From contig JBGQCF010000005.1 of assembly GCA_041495205.1 (NCBI GenBank), positions 9,343 to 73,342 on the forward strand: DNA of 64,000 nt. The letters run 5' to 3'. The notes beneath the pieces are model-generated. The model was not told the origin of the DNA and did not search any database. It saw nothing but the letters and a program-made list of their open reading frames with translations. Made by a program: the position numbers and the translations under genes. The stretch is from Gammaproteobacteria bacterium (GTDB lineage Bacteria > Pseudomonadota > Gammaproteobacteria > Burkholderiales > JAHFRG01). Below, piece by piece: positions 26,868 to 37,149 of this stretch. How positions within the stretch are numbered: position 1 is the first letter of the stretch; every line of letters begins with the position of its first letter.

Positions 26868-27689
26868 TTATCCGACAAGAACCACTGGACAGTCGATCTC
26901 GTTGAGCAAAGTGGCGAAGCCCTCGCCTTCGCGGAAGCGCCTATCGCCGTTGAGGACCAACACACCGGCGCCCTCTCGCCGCACCGCCGTAGCAAGATCC
27001 TCTACCCCTGCGTAAGTGATGCACTGGCAAGCGGCCGAGGTGATTCCTGCGTGCGCCAGCAGAACCTTTGCCTCGCTTGCGCGCGAGGAGAACTCATCTG
27101 CAGTAGATGCAAGTACCAGCAATCTCAATTCCAGGCTGCCCGATAGCGCCAGTCGTTGCGCCAATTCCAATGCCCGGTGTGAACTAGCCGAACCATCGTA
27201 TACCGCCACGACCGGGCGAGATTCCCGAGTGGGCCGGGTTAGACCCGGCAACGTTTCAACCAGCAAATACCCCAGCGACCGCATTCCCATTCGCGCGCGA
27301 TTGCCCAGTACGACAAGATCGAGTTCACCGGCCAAGGCGAACAACTCGTCGGCAATCTGGCCGCGTGCGATGTGAAACGACCAACGCAGCTGCAACCGGG
27401 CGGCCGTCTCGGCGAGCAGGTGCTGTGCTTCTTCCGCCTCACGGCGCAAGGCCTGCTCCACATCCTCCAATGCGATGGTGCGCGAATCAGGAGACAAAAA
27501 CCCGAGTTCGCGCGTGAAAGGCAGGCTGCCAACCCGCAACAAATTGATGTCCTCGACGAATAGTCCCGCCAATTCGGCATCCAGTTCGGCAGCCAAGGCG
27601 GCGGCTGTCGCCAGCGCCGTCCTGCTGCGCGGCGAAACATCCAGTGCGAGCAGCACCTTGCCGATTCTAGGGTTGTCCTGCATCGCCAT
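26868..27689 (-). CDS. Tandem universal stress protein (USP) domain protein
   Basis: The 273 aa ORF has two USP-like halves (VLLALDVSPRS... and VVAVYDGSASSHRAL...). Its start overlaps the stop of the Lon-like gene by 23 nt. Confidence 0.65.
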   Translation of the reverse strand: MAMQDNPRIGKVLLALDVSPRSRTALATAAALAAELDAELAGLFVEDINLLRVGSLPFTRELGFLSPDSRTIALEDVEQALRREAEEAQHLLAETAARLQLRWSFHIARGQIADELFALAGELDLVVLGNRARMGMRSLGYLLVETLPGLTRPTRESRPVVAVYDGSASSHRALELAQRLALSGSLELRLLVLASTADEFSSRASEAKVLLAHAGITSAACQCITYAGVEDLATAVRREGAGVLVLNGDRRFREGEGFATLLNEIDCPVVLVG

Positions 27690-30114
27690 CCTCGTGTGCG
27701 TGTGCGCCTTTGCTTAAACCGGTGTCCTCCCTGCCATAGGCGCGCCGGAGTTCGGCCAATTGCTTTAAGCGGTCCGCCACTCTGCGGTTGACGCTACCTT
27801 CTGGAAAATGTCCCTGGAGATCAGCCTCGCCCGCAGTCAAGCCGGTCAGCATTTCTATGGCCTGGTCCACGGTTTCCACCGGGTAGATGTGAAAGCGCCC
27901 GGCTGCAGCTGCATCCACTACGTCCCGTCGCAACATCAGGTGTGGCACGTTAGTGGCCGGGATGAGTACGCCCTGATCACCGCTCAGGCCACGTTTGCTG
28001 CAAATGTCGAAAAATCCCTCGATTTTCTCGTTCACCGCACCGATTGCCTGCACTCGTCCGAACTGATCTACCGAGCCGGTCACCGCCAGCGACTGTCGTA
28101 TCGGCTGGCCGGACAGTGAGGATAACAGTGCGCACAATTCCGCCACCGAAGCGCTATCACCTTCCACCGGACCGTAGGTCTGCTCGAACACAAGACTGGC
28201 TGACAGCGACAGCGGCAGCTCAGCGGCATAGCGCGAGGCGAGGAAGGAGGTGAGAATCAGCACGCCCTTGGAATGGATTGCACCGCCCAGCTTGACCTCA
28301 CGTTGGATATCGATCAACTCACCGCTACCCAGGCGGGTGGCAGCCGTGATGCGGGACGGCTGTGCAAAGGCAAATTGGCCAAGCTGGTATACCGAGAGAC
28401 CATTGACCTGTCCCACCTGGTCGCCTGACGTGTCTATCAACAGCGTGCCGCGTAAGATGGCTTCGTACGAACGATCGCGCAACCGGTCAGCACGGTGAAT
28501 CTGCGCTTCGATCGCCCGTTCGACATTCTCGCGCGCCACCGCTTTCTGGCCACCCTGCCCCGCCCAGTAGAAAGCCTCACGCACAAGGTCGGCCAGGCTT
28601 TCCATGTGGGTCGAGAGCTTCTCAGTATCCTCGGCACGGCGGGCGCAGTGCTCGATCACGCGCGCCACGGCTCCGCGATCGAACGGCAGCAGCCCTTCCT
28701 TGCGAGCCACCGTGGCGATCAACCGAGCATACAGAAGGTCGTTTTCCTCGCTGCGCGGTACCTCATCCTCGAAGTCAGCCGCGACCTTGAACAATTCCAC
28801 GAACTCCGGATCGTATTCGGCTAACAGGTAATACAACAATCGATCGCCCAGCAGGACTACCTTGACGTCCAGCGGAATCGGTTCCGGCTCCAGCGAAACG
28901 GTGCTGACCAGGCTGTACATTTGGCCAAGCGACTCGATGCGGATCTCGCGCGTGGACAAGGCACGCTTCAGCGCTTCCCAGGAAAACGGCTGCGTAATCA
29001 GCTTGAACGAATCCAGCAGCAAATAGCCACCGTTGGCCAAGTGCAGCGCACCGGGCTTTATCAACAGGAAATTAGTTACCAACGCACCCATTTGAGAAAG
29101 GTGCTCCACTCGTCCAATCAGGTTCTGGTAGGTCGGATGCTCCTCGTCGATAATCGGTACGCCACGCTGGTCGCCATGATCTACCAGCAAGTTGACCTGG
29201 AAGCGGCTGAGATCGGCACGCTCCGACAGTCCCATCAAAGCCGCGCCTAAAGATTCCTCCTTGGGCTGGCGGAAATCGTTCATGTTCTCGATGATGTTTT
29301 GCTGTACCTCGTCCAAATATGTCCGTACTGCCTGGAAATCGGCGTACTCGCTTCGTAGGGCATTGATCAAGTGCCCCACCGCGAACAGGACGGCCTCCTC
29401 CTTGAGCTTGCGCACGCGCTCAAAGCGCTCCCGCCGCCAGCGCGGCGCTTGATGGAGCATTTTTTCCAGCATTTCCTGCAAATTTCCGGTGTCGCGCTCG
29501 ATACGCTCCTTTTCGTCTTGCGGCAATTTGGAGAAGTCTTCCGGACTGATCACCTCGCCATCTTTGGTTGGGGCAAATGAGAAGCCATTAGGAGTGCGTA
29601 GCAGGACAATGCCACGCTTGGCAGCTACGTCGCCGACTTCCTCGAACGCCTTGGTCTGCTGCCCGCCAAATTCTTCGTTGATCTGATTGAGCCGGCGACG
29701 GTACTCCTCGCCCTCGAACACAGTAGGGATAATCGAGCACAAGTCTTCTACCAGTTGCTGCATGTGGGTGCGTAGCTTCGCCCCCATTCCTGCTGGCAGA
29801 TGGATAGCGCGCGGCTTATGGGGTTGGGAAAAATTATTAACGTAGCACCAGTCAAACGGGCGGGCCTCTCCAGCTATGCGCTGCTTGAGCAGTTGTCGCA
29901 TCAGGGTGCGCTTGCCGCTGCCACTCGGTCCCATGACGTAGAGGTTGTAGCCCTCGCGGCGCATGCCGATGCCGAACTGTGCAGCATCTACGGCACGTAC
30001 TTGTCCGATGATCTCGGTAAGGTCCTCGAGTTCCGCGGTAGTTTCGAAAGGGAACTTGGCGGGATCGCAGCGCCGGTAAAGACGTTCTGCCACCAATGGT
30101 TTGAAATTGCTCAT
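27667..30114 (-). CDS. Lon-like protease with an N-terminal AAA+ ATPase module (AAA_32/LonC-like architecture)
   Basis: The 815 aa ORF has a Walker A motif (GPSGSGKRT). The C-terminal Lon protease domain has the Ser motif VEGDSAS and a downstream Lys (AVNEKIEGF). Confidence 0.85.
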   Translation of the reverse strand: MSNFKPLVAERLYRRCDPAKFPFETTAELEDLTEIIGQVRAVDAAQFGIGMRREGYNLYVMGPSGSGKRTLMRQLLKQRIAGEARPFDWCYVNNFSQPHKPRAIHLPAGMGAKLRTHMQQLVEDLCSIIPTVFEGEEYRRRLNQINEEFGGQQTKAFEEVGDVAAKRGIVLLRTPNGFSFAPTKDGEVISPEDFSKLPQDEKERIERDTGNLQEMLEKMLHQAPRWRRERFERVRKLKEEAVLFAVGHLINALRSEYADFQAVRTYLDEVQQNIIENMNDFRQPKEESLGAALMGLSERADLSRFQVNLLVDHGDQRGVPIIDEEHPTYQNLIGRVEHLSQMGALVTNFLLIKPGALHLANGGYLLLDSFKLITQPFSWEALKRALSTREIRIESLGQMYSLVSTVSLEPEPIPLDVKVVLLGDRLLYYLLAEYDPEFVELFKVAADFEDEVPRSEENDLLYARLIATVARKEGLLPFDRGAVARVIEHCARRAEDTEKLSTHMESLADLVREAFYWAGQGGQKAVARENVERAIEAQIHRADRLRDRSYEAILRGTLLIDTSGDQVGQVNGLSVYQLGQFAFAQPSRITAATRLGSGELIDIQREVKLGGAIHSKGVLILTSFLASRYAAELPLSLSASLVFEQTYGPVEGDSASVAELCALLSSLSGQPIRQSLAVTGSVDQFGRVQAIGAVNEKIEGFFDICSKRGLSGDQGVLIPATNVPHLMLRRDVVDAAAAGRFHIYPVETVDQAIEMLTGLTAGEADLQGHFPEGSVNRRVADRLKQLAELRRAYGREDTGLSKGAHAHEDGDAGQP

Positions 30115-30254
30115 TGTTCTCTTTACATTGCGCGTATATCTGGTGAATCAAATAAATGTGCTGCTGCAATACGTATTGCTTTGCAGGTTGCCCATTCACG
30201 GCTTTTATATATCGTACCGTAATATTGGCATATTGATGGCAATCGCGTCCGGAG

Positions 30255-31289
30255 TCATGCGCTCCGCATTGCGATCAAGATCCCGGTGCCGCAACTCGCC
30301 GTCTCAAAGCGCACCGGCAGAAATTGTTCGATCAACCAAATCGTAGTTTGTGCGTGACTGCTCAGGGAACGTGCCGTAACCCGTGACGCTCCGCCGGCGA
30401 GCGCCAGGTAGATCAGAAGCTGATCGCTGGCATGTATGTCGAGCGCCACTCCGGCGCCTAGATCAGCAGCCAGTTCAGCTCCCGCCTCCTTGCCGAGTTG
30501 TTCGGCGCGCACGCCGCGCTGCGCCACACGCCCGGCACCGAAAACACTGCGCTCAGTTTCAGCCCACAGCACGATTGCTCCACCTTGGCCGTATGCTTGA
30601 TCATTGCCTAGCACTTGCGTCTTGATGGTCGACTCGGTAACGCCAAACCTTCGCAATGGCTCGATTGCGGCGCTGCGCATGCGCTCGACAATATGCCCCG
30701 GCAAATTCACGACATGAGCATTGCCAGACAACGCTTTCAGTTTCCCGGCGCAATCGAGTTGCAGCGCGTGCAGCGTGCCCGGATCGACAACAACCTCAAC
30801 CTCGCCACCGCCGCGCGGATAATATCCACGCCGCTGCAACTCGCCGCGCACCCGGGCCCCCATCCTGCCTAACAAAGCCAGCAACACGTGTTGAAAATAA
30901 TCGAATGGCGGCGCCGCTCGTACGTCAGTGCCACCGATTATGCGAACACGCACGCGCTCGCCGCTGTGGATCATCGCCGGCAACAGCGCCTGCAGCACCA
31001 GCGTAACACTGCCCGCAGTGCCGACGTCAAATTGAAAATCTCCGCCGCGCAGACGGCGCGGGCGAAACGCCAGCCGTTGCGCTTTCAGCGCGAGTCCGTC
31101 GACCTCGGCATCGCACAGCGCGGCAACTGCGTTTACCGCGGTCAGATGCTGCGCGGCAAGCCCCGGATTCGCACGCTTGGCGCGAACGTTCGTAATGGTG
31201 ACCGTGGTGCCAGTAATAGCAGCGAGCGCGACCGCCGTGCGTACCAGTTGTCCGCCGCCTTCGCCGTAGCAGCCGTCGATTTCGAGCAT
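30255..31289 (-). CDS. rtcA: RNA 3'-terminal phosphate cyclase
   Basis: The 344 aa ORF has the N-terminal block GEGGGQLVRTAVALAA and the adenylylatable His context (DIHASDQLLIYLALAGG). Confidence 0.9.
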   Translation of the reverse strand: MLEIDGCYGEGGGQLVRTAVALAAITGTTVTITNVRAKRANPGLAAQHLTAVNAVAALCDAEVDGLALKAQRLAFRPRRLRGGDFQFDVGTAGSVTLVLQALLPAMIHSGERVRVRIIGGTDVRAAPPFDYFQHVLLALLGRMGARVRGELQRRGYYPRGGGEVEVVVDPGTLHALQLDCAGKLKALSGNAHVVNLPGHIVERMRSAAIEPLRRFGVTESTIKTQVLGNDQAYGQGGAIVLWAETERSVFGAGRVAQRGVRAEQLGKEAGAELAADLGAGVALDIHASDQLLIYLALAGGASRVTARSLSSHAQTTIWLIEQFLPVRFETASCGTGILIAMRSA

Positions 31290-31503
31290 TTCAACCTCAA
31301 CACATCCTAACCGGGGTTCGAAGAATTTTGCGCCAGGGAATCGAAGGCCTTGAAGCGGCCATCACCCTGCAGACTCGGATCCGCTCGGCACAAGGGATTG
31401 TTGTCACCCGTCATCCTGGTCCAGCAAACCTCGGACCTCGCCCTCGGCCACATCGTGACCGGCGCCCGCGCCGCTTCGAGGCACTGAGCCGGAGCCGTTG
31501 TGG

Positions 31504-31512
31504 TGCTAAAAT
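31504..31512 (+). promoter_or_regulatory. Candidate extended -10 promoter element (TGcTAAAAT) for the MBL hydrolase gene
   Basis: A TGCTAAAAT motif lies 29 nt upstream of the ATG at 31541. No clear -35 element or Shine-Dalgarno sequence was seen. Confidence 0.3.
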
Positions 31513-31540
31513 CTGTAAACCATACTCAGTCGCATCGCAC

Positions 31541-32560
31541 ATGAAGCCAATCTTTCACCCGATGCTGGCAAATGGTCCGTTCGGGGACCCGGGCCTGTAT
31601 GTCGACTTTTTGTTTGAAAAACGCGCCCTGATGTTCGATCTGGGCGATCTCCGGGCGCTGGCACCGCGCAAGATCCTGCGCGTGAGCGACGTGTTTGTGT
31701 CGCACACGCATATGGACCACTTCATCGGCTTCGACTGGCTGCTCCGAATCTGTCTCGGCCGCGAGCATATGATGCGGCTTTACGGCCCGCCCGGATTCCT
31801 GGCTCAGGTGGCAAGCAAGCTCGGGGCGTACACCTGGAACTTGGTCGAGCGCTACGACACCGATTTCTCGCTCGAAGCGACCGAGATTCACCCCTCCGGC
31901 ATGGCGCGGCGCGCCCGCTTCCGTTGCCGGGCGGCGTTCCGGCGCGAACGTGAGCAAGAACTGCGAATAGATGACGTTCTGCTCGACGAGCCAGGGTTCC
32001 GGGTGCGCTGCGCGTTGCTCGATCACGGCACGCCGTGCCTTGGTTTCGCCCTTGAGGAAAAACAACACGTCAACGTCTGGAAGGACCGCCTCGAAGCGCT
32101 CGGCTTTCCGACCGGGCCGTGGCTGCAGGAACTCAAGGATGCGGTGCTCGCCAACGAGCCGGATGCGACACCGTTTCGGGTATGGTGGAGGACGCAAGGA
32201 GCTGTGCACGAGGAATTTTTCCCGCTCGGCGAACTCAGGCGGCGCATCCTCGAAGTCGTGCCCGGCCAGAAAATCGCATACATTACCGATGCCGCATACC
32301 ACCCGTCCAATGCCGCGTACATCGCGGCGTTGGCGGCGGGCGCTGACTTGTTGTTCATCGAAGCGCCGTTTCTCGCCGCCGATGCCGAACGCGCCGCGCA
32401 GAAGTACCATTTGACCGCACAACAGGCTGGGATCCTTGCTCGCGCCGCCAGCGTGAAAGCCGTGATCCCGTTCCATTTTTCGCCGCGCTATAGTGACCGC
32501 GAGGTCCAATTGCGCGACGAAATTGCAGATGCCTTTGCCGGGAACCCTGTGCCGCGCTGA
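31541..32560 (+). CDS. Metallo-beta-lactamase-fold hydrolase (RNase Z / PhnP-like)
   Basis: The 339 aa ORF starts at MKPIFHP and has the motif VSHTHMDH with downstream His/Asp blocks. The upstream part of the listed ORF (31328-31540) is an Arg/Pro-rich, non-coding-looking extension. Confidence 0.8.
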   Translation: MKPIFHPMLANGPFGDPGLYVDFLFEKRALMFDLGDLRALAPRKILRVSDVFVSHTHMDHFIGFDWLLRICLGREHMMRLYGPPGFLAQVASKLGAYTWNLVERYDTDFSLEATEIHPSGMARRARFRCRAAFRREREQELRIDDVLLDEPGFRVRCALLDHGTPCLGFALEEKQHVNVWKDRLEALGFPTGPWLQELKDAVLANEPDATPFRVWWRTQGAVHEEFFPLGELRRRILEVVPGQKIAYITDAAYHPSNAAYIAALAAGADLLFIEAPFLAADAERAAQKYHLTAQQAGILARAASVKAVIPFHFSPRYSDREVQLRDEIADAFAGNPVPR

Positions 32561-32583
32561 TGCATGACAGCCAGTACACAGCC

Positions 32584-32865
32584 TCAGTGGTCTTCCAGCC
32601 TGGGAATGCTTTCCTCGGCGGGCTCTCCGGTCTCGGGATCGATCCAGTCTGCAATCCCAGCGTCCGCCTCGGCTTCCTCGAGAGTCTCACCTGGTTCGAC
32701 TTCGGAATTGTCCCGATACTGCATGTCCTGGATCGCTTCGATCAGACCCGGAAATGGACCTGATTCATCACCACCGCTCTTGGACTGCCAGTAGAACCCA
32801 TCAGGGCGCTCGATAATGCGCGTCTTGTCGTAATCTGGGGGCGTTTCAGGAATGATATGGGTCAT
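32584..32865 (-). CDS. Hypothetical small acidic protein
   Basis: The 93 aa ORF has a strongly acidic C-terminal half. Its ATG overlaps the stop of the upstream small ORF (ATGA). Confidence 0.5.
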   Translation of the reverse strand: MTHIIPETPPDYDKTRIIERPDGFYWQSKSGGDESGPFPGLIEAIQDMQYRDNSEVEPGETLEEAEADAGIADWIDPETGEPAEESIPRLEDH

Positions 32866-33092
32866 GTTACAGCTCCTTGCTGCGCTGGATAAATGACATC
32901 ACCGAAATCTATAGGCATAGGCGACCGTGGTCGCCTGCGGGAACTCGCCGCCCCAATGGTGGCAAAGCTCATGATGTTGTGCCGCTTAAGCTGTTCCAGG
33001 GTAGACGCCTTGCGTGCGTGGTTCATTTCTTGCCTCCTTGCCACTGCCTGCAGCAGCGGTACATGGATGGATTCGGCTTTGCCTTTTTTCAT
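32862..33092 (-). CDS. Hypothetical small basic protein
   Basis: The 76 aa Arg/Lys-rich ORF has a 4-nt ATGA overlap with the downstream acidic ORF, which suggests translational coupling. Confidence 0.35.
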   Translation of the reverse strand: MKKGKAESIHVPLLQAVARRQEMNHARKASTLEQLKRHNIMSFATIGAASSRRRPRSPMPIDFGDVIYPAQQGAVT

Positions 33093-33456
33093 TATCTACT
33101 TGCAGGACGATGGACATTTTGATCCATATCAATCGCGCGCCCCCGGCTATAACCGGCAGTCGCGAAGCGAGCCGGACGACTTGACCGGTCTATCTCAGTC
33201 CAAATTCAAACAGAATGTTGCGTGGAAACGGACCGGGGCTTCGCGTTGCAGATGCTGGTAAATTAGACACCGGAGCCTCAATTAGCGTCTTATTTAGGTA
33301 CTTACCGCGCGACACCCAGAACGAGCAATACTATGCCCAAGGTAATCAGCCACTTGCTCACACCGCGTTCTTTTCGACAATGGTAATGGTGTTTAAATAT
33401 TATCGCGCTTAACTTCAAGACGTCCCAACGCAAATCGCAATGGCATCGAGCCAAAC

Positions 33457-34023
33457 CTAAACCCGATGCCTACTTTCACCCTGCGTAACACCTCCGGCGA
33501 TTATATGCGCAGTGCGCAACGGTTCCGGAATCAAACTATGGACCGCGAAACGCCGCAGCAGGTTTTCGGTTTCCGCAAGGGAACTGCCACGGCGCTGGAC
33601 GTAAACCCCGGCTACGTGTTCCATTGGTCCGGCGCGCTCGATAAGCTGCCATTTGCGCTTTCCTCCCGGCACATGGCTTAGCAGCGCGCGGCGGATCGCC
33701 TCCAGGTTCGGCCTGCGGCGGGTTACCAGAATTACTGGAATGCCCAGCGCCGCGTGAAGCGCGTCCAGGTCGACTACATTGAATCCTGCGAGCGCAATCC
33801 CCTGCAGCAGCACAGCGTGAGTCTGGGACCGGAAACGCGAGTGTCGCACCAAATCAGTCAATACCTTGGTGGAATTTACTCCGTCGCGCCGAACCTTGCC
33901 GGAGAGCACGGCGTCCAGCCGCAGTCCCGCATACACTGCCCCTACTACCAGCACATTCCCGCGGTAATTCTGATCAAAGGGGGCATCATCAAAACCGATA
34001 ATGTGTGTAAGGCGCCTCGACAT
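33457..34023 (-). CDS. DUF99 / UPF0215-like protein (mostly archaeal family with a nuclease-like fold)
   Basis: The 188 aa ORF has the N-terminal block IIGFDDAPF and the blocks LQGIALAGFNVVD and EPLRTAHIIA. I assigned the family from memory. Confidence 0.6.
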   Translation of the reverse strand: MSRRLTHIIGFDDAPFDQNYRGNVLVVGAVYAGLRLDAVLSGKVRRDGVNSTKVLTDLVRHSRFRSQTHAVLLQGIALAGFNVVDLDALHAALGIPVILVTRRRPNLEAIRRALLSHVPGGKRKWQLIERAGPMEHVAGVYVQRRGSSLAETENLLRRFAVHSLIPEPLRTAHIIAGGVTQGESRHRV

Positions 34024-34266
34024 GTGATAGAGCAGCGTAACTGGCTTGTTTGTACCAAGTTAATCGTTAATCTCAACTTAACGAAAAGGAATAGGTCACG
34101 TCAAGAAAAGGATTAGGCCGCCACTAGATTGCAGTCCAGCATAAACATTCCCTCTGGCTTATTTTGCACGTCTCATGGAGTGAAGGAGAGATTAACAAGC
34201 AGTTTTCAGCCCTGGAAGTGCATTAAACTATAAATCAACAATGTGCTGAACAAATCACGTCTAAAA

Positions 34267-34995
34267 ATGCGCGGGATAATTTACGTTGGTACAAGCGGCT
34301 GGACTTACGACGCGTGGAAGGACGGCTTTTATGCCGGCATCCCGCGCAGCGCATGGCTGAAATACTATACCCAACACTTTCATGCAGTCGAAGTGAACGC
34401 CACCTTCTATCACCAACTCAGACAGAGCACCTTCGCTAAGTGGGCGGAAACAACCCCTCCCGATTTCCGGTTCGCGATCAAGGGCCACCGCTACTTGACA
34501 CATGTCTTGAAGCTGGAAGTTTCTCGAGAAGTTTTTTTGCGGCAAATGCAAGCCGTTAAGCCCTTGGGCAAACAGCTCGCTGTGATGCTTTGGCAGCTAC
34601 CCGCCGGACTGAAGTGCGATCCACTACGCTTGGAGCGATTCGCGCGTATGCTTGATACTTGGCAGGAGACCCGTCATGCTTTGGAATTCAGGCACCAATC
34701 GTGGTTCGACGAGCCTACTGCGGAGTGCCTGCGGCGTCACCGTCTCGCTGCCTGCCAATCGGACGCAGCGGATTGGCCTTTGTGGGACGCCGTGACGACT
34801 GATCTGGTCTACGTGAGGCTGCACGGGCACCGCATCACATATGAATCCAGCTATGCTGCTCGGCAACTCGCCGATTGGGCAAAACGCATCCGGCGTTGGT
34901 CGATGGAAGGGCGCGACGTGCACATTTACTTTGATAATACCGATGCCGGGCACGCTCCGCGCGATGCGCAGCGTCTGGTCGCATCGCTGGCTTGA
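34267..34995 (+). CDS. DUF72 (YecE/UPF0759) family protein
   Basis: The protein carries the blocks IYVGTSGWTYDAWKDGFY, VEVNATFY and YFDN. The start is set at the ATG rather than the upstream GTG. Confidence 0.85.
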   Translation: MRGIIYVGTSGWTYDAWKDGFYAGIPRSAWLKYYTQHFHAVEVNATFYHQLRQSTFAKWAETTPPDFRFAIKGHRYLTHVLKLEVSREVFLRQMQAVKPLGKQLAVMLWQLPAGLKCDPLRLERFARMLDTWQETRHALEFRHQSWFDEPTAECLRRHRLAACQSDAADWPLWDAVTTDLVYVRLHGHRITYESSYAARQLADWAKRIRRWSMEGRDVHIYFDNTDAGHAPRDAQRLVASLA

Positions 34996-35019: not shown

Positions 35020-36120
35020 TTAATTCCAGCGCAATAGAAAAGTATCATCCGCTTGTCGCTCTACCCGTGTACCGAGCTTCATGCCTTCGCGGTTCAGGCA
35101 CTCGAATAACCAAAGCATGCCCTCCTCGGGTGCGCGGTTAACGCGGAAGCGGCGAATCTGGGTCGGAGTGGCAGTGAATTGCAGCAGCCTGCCGGTGGAA
35201 GCATCCACAACCGGGAAGTACATCAGCGAGAGATCGGCCCTGTAGCTCTCGTGCCCGCCGATACCTTCGTAGTCATTTAGGAAATCACCGCAGCCGTAAA
35301 TGATTGGCCTTTCCCGGTAGACTTCGATACCCTTTACGTGGTGCGAGGAATGGCCGTGTACCACATCTATTCCAGCGGTGTCGATGAGGCGATGCGCAAA
35401 TGCGCGCTCTTCGTACGACACATCAAAAATCCAATTGCCGCCCCAGTGGATGGAAAACACGGCTATGTCTCCTGCCTTCTTTTCGCTAAATATCCGTCGC
35501 GCGATTATGCCCACAGTATGCTCGGAAAAATCCTTCAGGAAATTAACGCCGGAACGCTCTTTCGTTGCCGCCCATTCGCCAGCTACACCACTGCTCTCCA
35601 TTGCAAAGGCGAATACAAGCACCCTTCCCTTGTTAGCCACCTCGATACGCGCCGGCGCCGCCGCTTCCTCTTGGTTGCGCCCCGCTCCGGCAGTACGCAG
35701 GCCTGCTCGGTGCAGTGTATCTAGAGATTCGGTCAGTCCACTACGCCCCCAGTCCAGCATGTGATTGTTGGCCAATACACAGCAATCGGGTTTTGCGGCG
35801 GTGAGGCAAGGTATATTCGCGGGACTCATGCGGTAATGGATACCCTTTCCTGGCCAGGCGTCTTTGCTTGACGTAACAGAGGTCTCCAAATTGATTATGC
35901 GCACATCCGGCCGAACGCGTTCGAACTCCATCAAGGCATCGCCCCAAATGTAAGCAAAATCGACAGGCTTCTTGAAAGTTCCGCTAGCGCGCTCGGCCAA
36001 CTCCACGTAGTCAGTCGCCGAGCGCACGTATGGCTCGAAAAGATGCGGCTGGCTTGGGTGCGGCAGTATCTGGTCCACACCCCGACCAGTCATAACGTCG
36101 CCACACAGAAATAACATCAT
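35020..36120 (-). CDS. CapA/PGA_cap-family metallophosphoesterase (orphan; no capB or capC nearby)
   Basis: The protein carries the blocks LCGDVMTGRG, LANNHMLDWG, FSIHWGGNW and VHGHSSHH. The start is set at the ATG (MMLFLCGD). Confidence 0.8.
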   Translation of the reverse strand: MMLFLCGDVMTGRGVDQILPHPSQPHLFEPYVRSATDYVELAERASGTFKKPVDFAYIWGDALMEFERVRPDVRIINLETSVTSSKDAWPGKGIHYRMSPANIPCLTAAKPDCCVLANNHMLDWGRSGLTESLDTLHRAGLRTAGAGRNQEEAAAPARIEVANKGRVLVFAFAMESSGVAGEWAATKERSGVNFLKDFSEHTVGIIARRIFSEKKAGDIAVFSIHWGGNWIFDVSYEERAFAHRLIDTAGIDVVHGHSSHHVKGIEVYRERPIIYGCGDFLNDYEGIGGHESYRADLSLMYFPVVDASTGRLLQFTATPTQIRRFRVNRAPEEGMLWLFECLNREGMKLGTRVERQADDTFLLRWN

Positions 36121-36264
36121 GGGAACGGGCGAAATTACTCCGCACTGGCCGCTCGGTGCCACGCCGGGTTGACTTCCGCACTGGAGTTTGATGCTGTATT
36201 CGCAGGTTCTTCCACTGCTTCAGCATCCAGGGCATTCTTCTGAGTGTTTGCGGGCACATTCATG

Positions 36265-37149
36265 TTACGTGGTCGTTCCCTGAGCGTAAAATCCGTGGCA
36301 TTCCTGCTCACGCCCGCGAACCACCCTCTTGCCAACCAGCGGCCCACGCGTCTCTGTAACAACGGTGCATTGGCGTTCCACGTGGTCGGTATCATAGAAA
36401 TAAAGGACAACCCAATCGCGAAGTCTTCCAAGTTTGTGTGCCAAAGCCGTGTTCGAGTAGAGTGCTGTAAAGTGCCACTCTCCGCGCTCGGTATGAAGTA
36501 CCGGCAACCAAGCTTCATTCTTGGGGTTGAATCGCTTCGGTGTGATTTTAGGCAAATGCCCTGATGCGGCTTTATCACGGTATTCACGGTCTATGTCCAG
36601 CAGCGTTTCAACCGGGGGCTCATGAGCCTTCTCGTTTACGAGACGCGGCCGTCGCGTTCTCACGCGGCCAAGCATTTTATCCAGAATAGCACGCCATGCA
36701 GCTGCGCGCCTTGAGCCTATGCCGGGAACGCTTTCGAGCCTTCCGTCATGGGCGGCTGATTCCAGCTCTTCGAGGGTATCGATATGCAAGGTATCGTGAA
36801 TTCGCTTGGCTAGCTCCGGCCCCATGCCTGGGACTGACTGAAACAGGGCCGCAGGGTCGGTGGTTCCACGCAGGCGTTCCAATTGGCCCCACCGTTCTGT
36901 AACCAGAATTTCTGCTATCGCAGAGGCAATGCCTTTACCAATGCCGGGAAGCGCATCGAGACCTTCAACTCCCTCCGCTCCAAATATGTCGCGCACGCTT
37001 CGGGGAAGATGCGCGATCGTATCGGCTGCCTTGCGATAAGCGTTCACACGGAACGGATTGGCGCCCTGACTGCGAAGGAGATCCGCTGCCTCGCGTAGTT
37101 TGTCGGCGATCTGTTGATTCTCCGACCACGATGTTTCGGCTTGGGTCAT
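36265..37149 (-). CDS. Helix-hairpin-helix DNA-binding protein resembling the N-terminal (8 kDa/fingers) part of family X polymerases, without a polymerase palm
   Basis: The 294 aa ORF has three HhH-type GIG motifs (LPGIGKGIA, VPGMGPELA, VPGIGSRRA). No GSxRRG...DxD nucleotidyltransferase motif is present. I do not recognise the ~130 aa C-terminal domain. Confidence 0.65.
   Translation of the reverse strand: MTQAETSWSENQQIADKLREAADLLRSQGANPFRVNAYRKAADTIAHLPRSVRDIFGAEGVEGLDALPGIGKGIASAIAEILVTERWGQLERLRGTTDPAALFQSVPGMGPELAKRIHDTLHIDTLEELESAAHDGRLESVPGIGSRRAAAWRAILDKMLGRVRTRRPRLVNEKAHEPPVETLLDIDREYRDKAASGHLPKITPKRFNPKNEAWLPVLHTERGEWHFTALYSNTALAHKLGRLRDWVVLYFYDTDHVERQCTVVTETRGPLVGKRVVRGREQECHGFYAQGTTT

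Follow-up and report, generated by a model that had tools for sequence, protein, structure and literature searches.

We analyzed a 64-kb stretch of contig JBGQCF010000005.1 (hereafter the window), in which positions 26868-32560 hold four adjacent genes, those for a universal stress protein (USP)-like protein, a Lon-like protease, the RNA 3'-terminal phosphate cyclase RtcA and a metallo-beta-lactamase (MBL) hydrolase. The initial annotation of this locus had described the four as a self-contained, horizontally acquired module for RNA-end modification and ATP-dependent proteolysis, possibly toxin-like or anti-phage in function. Searches with Pfam and NCBIfam profiles at their curated cut-offs confirmed the domains of all four open reading frames (ORFs) at the positions originally given; all four genes are real and their family assignments hold. 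The 140-bp gap between rtcA and the Lon gene, the 23-nt overlap between the Lon and USP genes and the divergent spacer between rtcA and the MBL gene (251 bp) were likewise confirmed from the coordinates. The four genes are:

26868-27689, minus strand: tandem USP-like protein, 273 aa, with PF00582 in its N-terminal half; its start overlaps the stop of the LonC gene by 23 nt
27667-30114, minus strand: Lon-like protease of the LonC subfamily, 815 aa, assigned from its Pfam domain set and its similarity to MtaLonC/TTC1975
30255-31289, minus strand: RtcA, RNA 3'-terminal phosphate cyclase, 344 aa, assigned from TIGR03399 and the catalytic His
31541-32560, plus strand: RNase Z-like MBL hydrolase, 339 aa, of the NCBIfam PRK02126 subfamily (NF002558)

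The sequence of the Lon-like protein places it in the LonC subfamily, whose members are, to our knowledge, known biochemically from Thermus and Meiothermus only. Its Pfam matches comprised LonC_helical (PF20437, 64 bits), AAA_32 (182 bits), LonB_AAA-LID (86 bits) and Lon_C (36 bits), and it scored far under the cut-offs of the LonA/LonB equivalog models (TIGR00764, 140 vs 516 bits; TIGR00763, 25 vs 608 bits). The closest solved relatives, and the top matches in the PDB, were MtaLonC/TTC1975 (317 bits), in a match that spans only residues 297-760 of the 815-aa protein. The Ser-Lys dyad (GDSAS...NEK) is present as first annotated, with S654 and K697 invariant in a 13-sequence alignment of the family (alignment A1) and aligned with the dyad of MtaLonC. 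The LonC-specific insertion, defined as CX3GLX(G/E) (PMC3391209), is also present, as CSKRGLSG at residues 705-712. The protein had been described as having an intact Walker A motif and as ATP-dependent, and neither description is supported by its motifs. The Walker A-like GPSGSGKRT departs from the consensus GxxxxGK[S/T] in having Arg in place of the required Ser or Thr. In the Walker B-like GYLLLDS the catalytic Glu is missing, the residue after D368 being Ser, and the canonical Walker B motif hhhhDE of the ATP-dependent LonA/LonB proteases is absent from the protein. The equivalent motif in MtaLonC, GYLILDA, also lacks the Glu, and MtaLonC binds nucleotide and has no ATPase or unfoldase activity (PMC3391209; PMC13069640). 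Because the Walker motifs of the window LonC match those of the ATPase-dead MtaLonC, we predict that it has no ATPase activity; by analogy, it may bind nucleotide, probably without ATP hydrolysis.

The gene that overlaps that of LonC encodes a protein whose N-terminal half passes the PF00582 model (36 bits vs a cut-off of 24) and whose C-terminal half, at 20.2 bits, falls under it, so that the tandem USP of the initial annotation stands for the first domain and is sub-threshold for the second. The best PDB match was the tandem USP TTHA0350, which aligned over both halves at a marginal score (E=0.014). The ATP motif G-2x-G-9x-G[S/T] was absent from both USP halves in the window protein and in 23 aligned homologs, its region being deleted or degenerate in the USP-like protein relative to TTHA0350, and the motifs do not support the nucleotide-sensing role once ascribed to the protein.

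Relatives of the window proteins were compared as genomic or metagenomic loci or contigs, identified here by L-numbers, with each locus scan consisting of the best 80 loci. The Lon-like family has at least 8000 matches, from which a genome scan with alignment A1 gave 80 loci of 50-84% identity. For the MBL, a metagenome scan with a second 13-sequence alignment (A2) also gave 80 loci of 50-84% identity, and on the RtcA side the annotated contigs of RtcA homologs were compared. Neighbors were identified by a codon-position GC filter and by tblastn with the window proteins and representatives of neighbor clusters.

The Lon scan showed that LonC and the USP-like protein form a conserved, overlapping gene pair. 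In 33 of the 69 loci that had enough flank to be informative, the gene immediately following Lon in the same orientation encoded a USP homolog, and the pairing proposed initially is therefore upheld. The adjacency occurs at 52-85% Lon identity, across beta- and gammaproteobacteria, with carriers in Thiobacillus, Gallionellaceae, Methylobacillus, Hydrogenophilus, Thiohalomonas and Nevskia. We also observed a USP of another kind in the close relative L082 (171-1087), where the divergent pair MBL<>RtcA-MJ1316 is followed by a single-domain USP with an ATP-binding motif and there is no LonC.

The assignment of RtcA was clear (TIGR03399 equivalog, 400 bits vs a cut-off of 250; RTC PF01137, 266 bits; RTC_insert PF05189, 70 bits), with matches to PDB 4O89 from P. 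horikoshii (260 bits) and to E. coli RtcA (217 bits). The initial annotation was right that the catalytic His is retained; the residue is H312 in LSSHAQTTIW, which aligns with the AMP-accepting His of E. coli (H308/309) and P. horikoshii (H307), and not the His of the H-x-x-DQL motif that had been named, since E. coli RtcA has a gap opposite the "HASDQL" histidine. From these features the window RtcA looks active. RtcA converts 3'- or 2'-phosphate RNA ends to 2',3'-cyclic phosphate (PMC3854526, PMC4174438). The reported lack of canonical Rtc partners was confirmed within the 64 kb, to which our negative findings for Rtc partners and for mobility genes apply. Tblastn with betaproteobacterial RtcB, archease and E. 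coli RtcB found no RtcB or archease, the best tblastn match of E. coli RtcR had E=1.7, and a six-frame search of the window found no GAFTGA motif. In addition, no sigma-54 -24/-12 element (TGGCAC-N5-TTGCW within 2 mismatches) was found in the spacer upstream of rtcA (31290-31540). The missing partners are not exceptional, because rtcA and rtcB are usually unlinked in bacteria and stand-alone rtcA is common (Das & Shuman, PMC3854526).

The MBL gene lies within a longer ORF (31328-32560). The NCBIfam match extends over residues 72-407 of that ORF, and the start of the gene was accordingly set at 31541. The protein matches Lactamase_B_2 and, at 465 bits vs a cut-off of 315, the "ribonuclease Z" subfamily model NF002558. 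It scored below the RNase Z equivalogs (TIGR02651, 118 vs 293 bits; NF000801, 113 vs 252 bits) and below the PhnP/cyclic-nucleotide phosphodiesterase-type model (NF041851, 39 vs 400 bits). The HxHxDH motif is present as HTHMDH, as annotated, and the metal ligands H55, H57, D59, H60, H162, D250 and H312 are invariant among the 13 members of alignment A2, as is the exosite motif PxGPWL (P190/G192/P193). The flexible-arm region aligns with residues 123-180 of B. subtilis RNase Z, and the HEAT motif of RNase Z is changed to IEAP in the window protein.

Members of this MBL family are truly associated with Rtc-type RNA-repair genes. An Rtc-type partner, defined as RtcA, MJ1316, archease or RtcB within 3.5 kb, was found in 18 of the 80 metagenomic loci and in 8 of the 39 with at least 1.2 kb on both sides. 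For genes that occur at most once per genome, we consider this association strong, though partial, and the link between MBL and Rtc genes drawn in the initial annotation holds. The RtcA proteins of the MBL-RtcA loci ranged from 39 to 82% identity, and at least four architectures were seen (divergent, co-directional upstream, downstream and convergent). The two genes were divergent (MBL<>RtcA) in L081-L083, ordered as MBL-RtcA in L122, and co-directional as RtcA-MJ1316-MBL in L087 and L088, with L089 similar and without a detected MJ1316. In five loci (L104, L109, L125, L127 and L140) the order was MBL-archease-RtcB with overlapping ends. LonC was near the MBL gene in only two of the 80 MBL loci (L110 and L113).

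Among the loci compared, the complete four-gene arrangement was seen only in the window. In the 80-locus Lon scan rtcA was directly upstream of Lon in L001 only (84% identity; adjacent in 1 of 71), and it lay 6-9 kb downstream of Lon in L014 and L023. The MBL gene was within 5 kb of Lon in 2 of the 80 loci (L010 and L013). Because rtcA and MBL are rarely near Lon across loci, the four-gene set is not a conserved unit. The initial annotation had itself named such a lack of linkage as counting against its module, and a self-contained four-gene module is not supported. The order RtcA-LonC-USP was found only where Lon was at least 84% identical (L001, L166/167, L173/174 and L175), all without MBL there; in L175, whose Lon and RtcA are 94% and 93% identical to those of the window, Endo_dU and not MBL adjoins rtcA.

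The nearest contigs were of two types. Type A contigs (RtcA 77-82% identical; L162-L165, L081-L083) have the order (HPF-CSD)-sm93-MBL<>RtcA-(MJ1316) and no LonC, sm93 being a small protein described below. Type B contigs (Lon 84-94% identical; L166/167, L173/174, L175) have HhH-PGA_cap-DUF72<>Endo_dU-RtcA-LonC-USP beside tatD-pilZ-holB-tmk, and are fully syntenic with the window, minus MBL and sm93. The window is thus type B with an sm93-MBL cassette between Endo_dU and rtcA, in this strain only. More distant RtcA homologs (59-64% identical) occur as RtcA-MJ1316-MBL (L168, L169), as RtcA-MJ1316 (L172) or as RtcA alone (L171), and RtcA-MJ1316 operons are present in L165, L168, L169 and L172. 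MJ1316 is a cyclic-end recognition domain (PMC6514570).

Comparable arrays with the ligase were found in other genomes. RtcB lies upstream of LonC in eight loci, usually as (MBL)-archease-RtcB-pncA-pncB-LonC-USP, and L176 (76% Lon identity) and also L058 have an sm93-archease-RtcB-AlaDH-LonC-USP array. An RNA-repair gene upstream of LonC-USP is a recurrent theme in this group of bacteria, within one bacterial order. Two independent cases of LonC near Rtc-neighborhood genes were also observed: in the distant contig L110 (3459-6949) LonC is divergent from MBL across a 120-bp spacer, and L170 (150-7035), whose RtcA homolog is 59-64% identical, has the order LonC-DnaJ-Hsp70<>RtcA.

The intergenic regions of the locus, and the small genes beyond MBL, contain the following features:

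30115-30254, minus strand: rtcA-LonC spacer, 140 bp, with a vestige of MJ1316 and a 14-bp palindrome
31290-31540, no strand: divergent rtcA<>MBL spacer, 251 bp (alignment A4)
32584-32865, minus strand: sm93, a 93-aa acidic protein of no known family, a recurrent neighbor of MBL and archease-RtcB
32862-33132, minus strand: putative class II FNR/Anr-type promoter, called from an exact box match and its geometry, and a 54-codon ORF

The approximately 30 nt that follow the rtcA stop (30225-30254) are a vestige of the 5' end of an MJ1316 gene, as indicated by tblastn with the MJ1316 ORF of L082 (E=3e-4) and by a DNA alignment to the sites where rtcA meets MJ1316 in L082 and L165. The MJ1316 gene follows rtcA in L082, L165, L168, L169 and L172, and the domain is gone from the window. 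The vestigial start argues for rtcA-MJ1316 as the older arrangement, and the loss of the domain suggests that MJ1316 was deleted when LonC-USP became the downstream neighbor of rtcA. The FNR-like site just after rtcA, GCGATTGCCATCAA, belongs to this remnant of MJ1316 coding sequence and was for that reason discarded as a candidate promoter element of LonC. The part of the spacer proximal to LonC (75 nt) is semi-conserved with L001/L166/L167, and no terminator-like site was found in the spacer. A perfect 14-bp palindrome, GCAATACGTATTGC, lies at 30166-30179, about 55 nt upstream of the LonC start. A role as shared operator was rejected, since the window has a single copy and since L166/L167 and, in part, L175 preserve no more than its GCAA/TTGC arms.

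The divergent spacer is homologous to those of type A contigs L162, L165, L081 and L083 (alignment A4). Within it, a GC-rich inverted repeat (CGGCGC-CC-GCGCCG, 31460-31473) is conserved in L162/L083 and has one apparently compensatory change in L165/L081; no FNR-like match was found in this spacer. A structured RNA or Y-RNA-like element was also considered and dismissed, as there was no Rfam match with E<=1 in 30000-34300 and the spacer fold had z=-0.03 relative to shuffles. At the Rfam gathering threshold the window has three tRNAs only, at 38.2-38.7 kb.

The sm93 protein had no Pfam or NCBIfam match and, when compared with DUF6763 as a candidate relative, no similarity. Its family comprises 232 representative clusters, 103 of them at E<=1e-10, and it adjoins MBL in L083 and L162-L165 and archease-RtcB in L003, L058 and L176, with a further case in L059. 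This recurrence suggests that sm93 may be an unrecognised accessory protein of RNA repair. Upstream of sm93 is a perfect FNR/Anr box, TTGATCCATATCAA, at 33119-33132, the only exact match in the window. A -10 element, GATAAT (33091-33096), predicts a start near 33084 on the minus strand, and the center of the box is 41.5 bp upstream of that start. The 54-codon ORF downstream of it (33026->32862) has an AAGGAGG Shine-Dalgarno sequence, overlaps sm93 by ATGA and had no Pfam match. FNR-like sites with up to 2 mismatches numbered 42 in the window vs 24.4 +/- 4.7 expected, a count reached by 0 of 100 shuffles, and exact FNR boxes numbered 19 in 2.05 Mb of related loci vs about 2 expected by a uniform-composition estimate. 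Some boxes lie 90-175 bp upstream of RtcA (L087), MBL (L139), HPF-CSD (L108) and Lon (L036) in relatives; in the window there was no FNR box or other shared motif upstream of rtcA, MBL or LonC. These motifs, together with the lxa-type genes described below, make low-oxygen or growth-arrest control plausible for parts of the neighborhood; they do not speak for such control of the four genes themselves.

The genes that follow to the right in the window are:

33457-34023, minus strand: Endo_dU (DUF99) homolog (PF01949, 196 bits)
34243-34995, plus strand: DUF72 protein (Pfam), divergent from Endo_dU
35020-36162, minus strand: PGA_cap protein (Pfam)
36265-37149, minus strand: 294-aa HhH protein (Pfam), which resembles only the N-terminal part of PolX

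Endo_dU immediately precedes rtcA in the nearest relatives, as Endo_dU-RtcA-LonC-USP in L166, L173, L174 and L175; we also observed it adjoining RtcA or MBL in L088, L089, L133 and L164. It has been characterised in archaea only, as a dU-specific DNA endonuclease (PMC11585767). The DUF72, PGA_cap and HhH genes complete the syntenic block, and their order is kept in L173/L174. Beside PGA_cap, downstream of LonC-USP, Thiobacillus loci have a full-length PolX of 574 aa instead of the short HhH protein.

Several relatives had further neighbors of note. In L005, L006, L008, L011, L021, L025, L033 and others, from Thiobacillus/Gallionella, the LonC-USP block is long and syntenic. It comprises an lxa_BCAM0308-family (NMD3-like) gene, an acidic 166-aa protein, an APH+AAA_33 kinase, a Prs-like gene, pncA, pncB, LonC, USP, an Hsp70-like gene, an HPF-CSD fusion, PGA_cap and PolX. 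In combining genes for hibernation, chaperones and NAD salvage, the block is reminiscent of the low-oxygen lxa locus of Burkholderia. In L164 (9054-12759), beside sm93-MBL<>RtcA, are genes for a PF04008 "adenosine-specific kinase", Endo_dU, a PF01663 phosphodiesterase, a NudC-type NUDIX protein and a HIT/DcpS-like protein, a set whose families suggest RNA-end or cap chemistry. A PF04008 gene also follows RtcA in L162/L163.

The wider surroundings of the locus are housekeeping in character, with fabG-fabF-pabC-mltG-tmk-holB-pilZ-tatD on the left and DUF4124, tRNA-Leu/Cys/Gly, pgsA, uvrC and UDG on the right, and no integrase, transposase or phage genes were found in the window. The rise in G+C reported initially is real and small: the four genes have 0.58-0.62 vs 0.52-0.56 in the flanks, mostly at first codon positions, and about 9% of the other 1-kb windows reach 0.59. 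The G+C content at third codon positions (GC3) was 0.65-0.74 vs 0.55-0.67 in the flanks, and the highest value, 0.74 for MBL, fits a strain-specific insertion of that gene. Recent horizontal acquisition of the block as a whole is not supported, given the small shift, the lack of mobility genes, the housekeeping flanks and the synteny of the region in L173/L174. Searches with the defence models of PADLOC-DB v2 gave no significant match, the Lon-like protein having marginal matches only (mad8, E=0.0024; BrxL, E=0.0047, 13 bits) and the other eight locus proteins none, and the proposal of anti-phage defence gains nothing from them.

Together, these data lead us to favor, as the probable explanation, two independently conserved pairs that are adjacent only in one shallow betaproteobacterial clade and do not make up a four-part system. 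With the same good but incomplete confidence, we regard the region as a rearranging chromosomal neighborhood of stress and nucleic-acid maintenance genes, neither a mobile island nor a defence system. The close RtcA relatives (77-82%) that have sm93-MBL<>RtcA without LonC support this division into two units. The first unit would be LonC with a degenerate tandem USP-like protein whose translation is coupled to its own. To judge from its characterised relatives MtaLonC/TTC1975, LonC may handle unfolded proteins under stress as an energy-independent protease or chaperone, and the USP-like protein, which is predicted not to bind ATP, may be its partner or regulator. The second unit would be a stand-alone RtcA with the divergently transcribed RNase Z-like MBL. 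In this unit RtcA would make 2',3'-cyclic phosphate from RNA 3'- or 2'-phosphate ends, MJ1316, where present, would recognise the cyclic end, and the MBL, in which the zinc ligands and the tRNA-binding arm motif are intact, would most likely trim or de-cyclise damaged tRNA or RNA 3' ends to 3'-OH for rebuilding. Such a ligase-free route of end healing is modeled on tRNase ZS/ELAC1 and rice TMS5, which are reported to remove 2',3'-cyclic phosphate from tRNA. The two units would have been joined in one betaproteobacterial clade, with the MJ1316 gene after rtcA lost. The data contain no mechanistic tie of the protease to the RNA enzymes.

Some observations weigh against this separation of the locus into two units. 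Co-directional, short-gap Rtc arrays stand upstream of LonC-USP in sister clades, as archease-RtcB-AlaDH-LonC-USP (L176/L058), as archease-RtcB-pncA-pncB-LonC-USP (Gallionellaceae, Thiobacillus) and as RtcB-LonC (L030), and LonC is near RtcA or MBL in the distant contigs L170, L110 and L113, which may mean a functional tie. The loci are also phylogenetically non-independent and many contigs are short, so that all the frequencies given here are rough. Because Rtc genes recur upstream of LonC-USP, a looser link through the stress response is possible. In its fullest form this would be a co-regulated maintenance regulon, in which a single stress-induced transcriptional programme that preserves the translation apparatus takes in LonC-USP together with an interchangeable RNA-repair "slot", filled by RtcA or by archease-RtcB and optionally by MBL and sm93. 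The programme would perhaps be triggered by low oxygen or growth arrest, and adjacency would be functional though not obligatory. That several clades have RtcB or RtcA close before LonC-USP and in the same direction speaks for such a regulon, as do stress and hibernation neighbors (HPF-CSD, Hsp70/DnaJ, a BON-domain protein in L170 and the lxa_BCAM0308 family), the excess of exact FNR boxes in related loci (19 vs about 2, by the uniform-composition estimate) and the class II geometry of TTGATCCATATCAA upstream of sm93. The Burkholderia lxa locus, which is low-oxygen induced, USP-rich and has an Anr/FNR-like motif (PMC3721108), offers a parallel. Nevertheless, the window rtcA, MBL and LonC genes have no FNR box or shared motif upstream, tblastn found no HPF-CSD, Hsp70-like or BCAM0308 genes in the window itself, and common descent can account for a linkage that is limited to related proteobacterial orders. 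We therefore hold this regulon to be possible but doubtful. A more specific version, a growth-arrest regulon, possibly under FNR/Anr oxygen sensing, that joins LonC-USP, HPF-CSD hibernation and an RNA-end-healing cassette (RtcA-MJ1316 or archease-RtcB, interchangeably, with the RNase Z-like cyclic phosphatase and sm93), seems to us unlikely.

A plainer view is that the MBL is a housekeeping RNase Z for tRNA 3' maturation and that its place beside rtcA is meaningless. The NCBIfam name of the family, the conserved exosite and zinc ligands and the approximately 80% of MBL loci without an Rtc partner are all consistent with this. However, 18 of 80 loci with Rtc-type partners, arranged in at least four ways, far exceed what chance would give for single-copy genes, and the protein is under the RNase_Z equivalog cut-off (118 vs 293 bits) and has IEAP for HEAT; we consider this view quite improbable. 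The model of the initial annotation is less credible again. The four genes are indeed physically adjacent with their catalytic residues intact, their G+C is slightly raised with the highest GC3 (0.74) in MBL, and BrxL-type Lon-like proteins do occur in defence systems, but the BrxL match here was insignificant (E=0.0047, 13 bits). No other locus compared had the four-gene set, MBL is missing from this position in relatives whose Lon is 84-94% identical, and among the Lon loci rtcA was adjacent in 1 of 71 and MBL nearby in 2 of 80. The absence of a significant PADLOC match and of integrase, transposase or phage genes, the bounding fab-tmk-holB-tatD and tRNA-pgsA-uvrC clusters, LonC motifs that predict no ATPase and a USP without an ATP-binding motif all tell against it as well. 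The missing conserved linkage largely refutes this model, for which we see hardly any chance, and the data do not support a module dedicated to RNA modification plus proteolysis or to defence.

The two-unit explanation has several consequences. Ruling out the four-gene reading stops a false lead. What remains is an RNase Z-like family, itself uncharacterised, that is repeatedly tied to RtcA, MJ1316, archease or RtcB, and a proteobacterial LonC whose conserved USP-like partner, coupled to it in translation, may serve as its regulator or adaptor. The neighborhoods also suggest a role for stand-alone RtcA, which may supply cyclic ends to a tRNase-Z-type cyclic phosphatase and not to a ligase. Neither the MBL-Rtc link nor the LonC-USP pair would greatly surprise specialists, and both are drawn from gene neighborhood only. 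If the growth-arrest regulon described above were real, it would keep tRNAs and ribosomes repairable through dormancy in Nitrosomonadales/Burkholderiales-type bacteria, and the RtcA and RNase Z-like pair would then be a ligase-free bacterial counterpart of eukaryotic ANKZF1/ELAC1/TRNT1 tRNA recycling.

With regard to known systems, the window LonC is closest to MtaLonC of Meiothermus taiwanensis and TTC1975 of Thermus thermophilus, whose domain order it matches and with which it has in common the Ser-Lys dyad, CX3GLX(G/E), GPxxxGK and GYL(I/L)LD without Glu. Unlike these proteins, it comes from a mesophilic proteobacterium and its gene overlaps that of a tandem USP-like protein. That partner has the two-domain layout of about 270 aa of the T. 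thermophilus TTHA0350/UspE class and differs from TTHA0350-type USPs in being marginally similar, in its sub-cut-off second domain and in its deleted or degenerate ATP motif. The lxa locus of Burkholderia cenocepacia is likewise a chromosomal cluster, no island, rich in USPs and stress proteins. A member of the lxa_BCAM0308 family occurs in the Thiobacillus versions of the neighborhood, and the FNR/Anr-type motif of lxa has a parallel in the perfect FNR box upstream of sm93. In contrast to lxa, the window has no BCAM0308 homolog by tblastn, and the lxa gene table examined here includes a Zn protease but has no entry for RtcA, RNase Z or LonC. The two loci resemble each other in theme only.

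Among the RNA-repair systems, the archease-RtcB operons of sister genomes have MBL and sm93 immediately before archease-RtcB, and the array occupies the position upstream of LonC-USP that RtcA has in the window, which is without ligase and archease. The rtcR-rtcBA operon of E. coli/Salmonella has a bona fide RtcA whose catalytic histidine is also present in the window. The window differs from that operon in that its 64 kb encode neither RtcB nor an RtcR/CARF activator and the spacer before rtcA has no sigma-54 promoter; the partners of its RtcA are the RNase Z-like MBL and, ancestrally, MJ1316. Finally, the MBL has in common with the short-form RNase Z enzymes (B. subtilis RNase Z, E. coli RNase BN, ELAC1/tRNase ZS and TMS5) the MBL fold with HxHxDH, the full set of zinc ligands and the GP motif of the flexible arm. 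It differs from them in belonging to the PRK02126 subfamily, under the RNase_Z equivalog cut-off and with IEAP for HEAT, and in a family linkage to Rtc genes in about one fifth of the loci. The reported removal of 2',3'-cyclic phosphate from tRNA by tRNase ZS/TMS5 fits the partnership of the MBL with RtcA.

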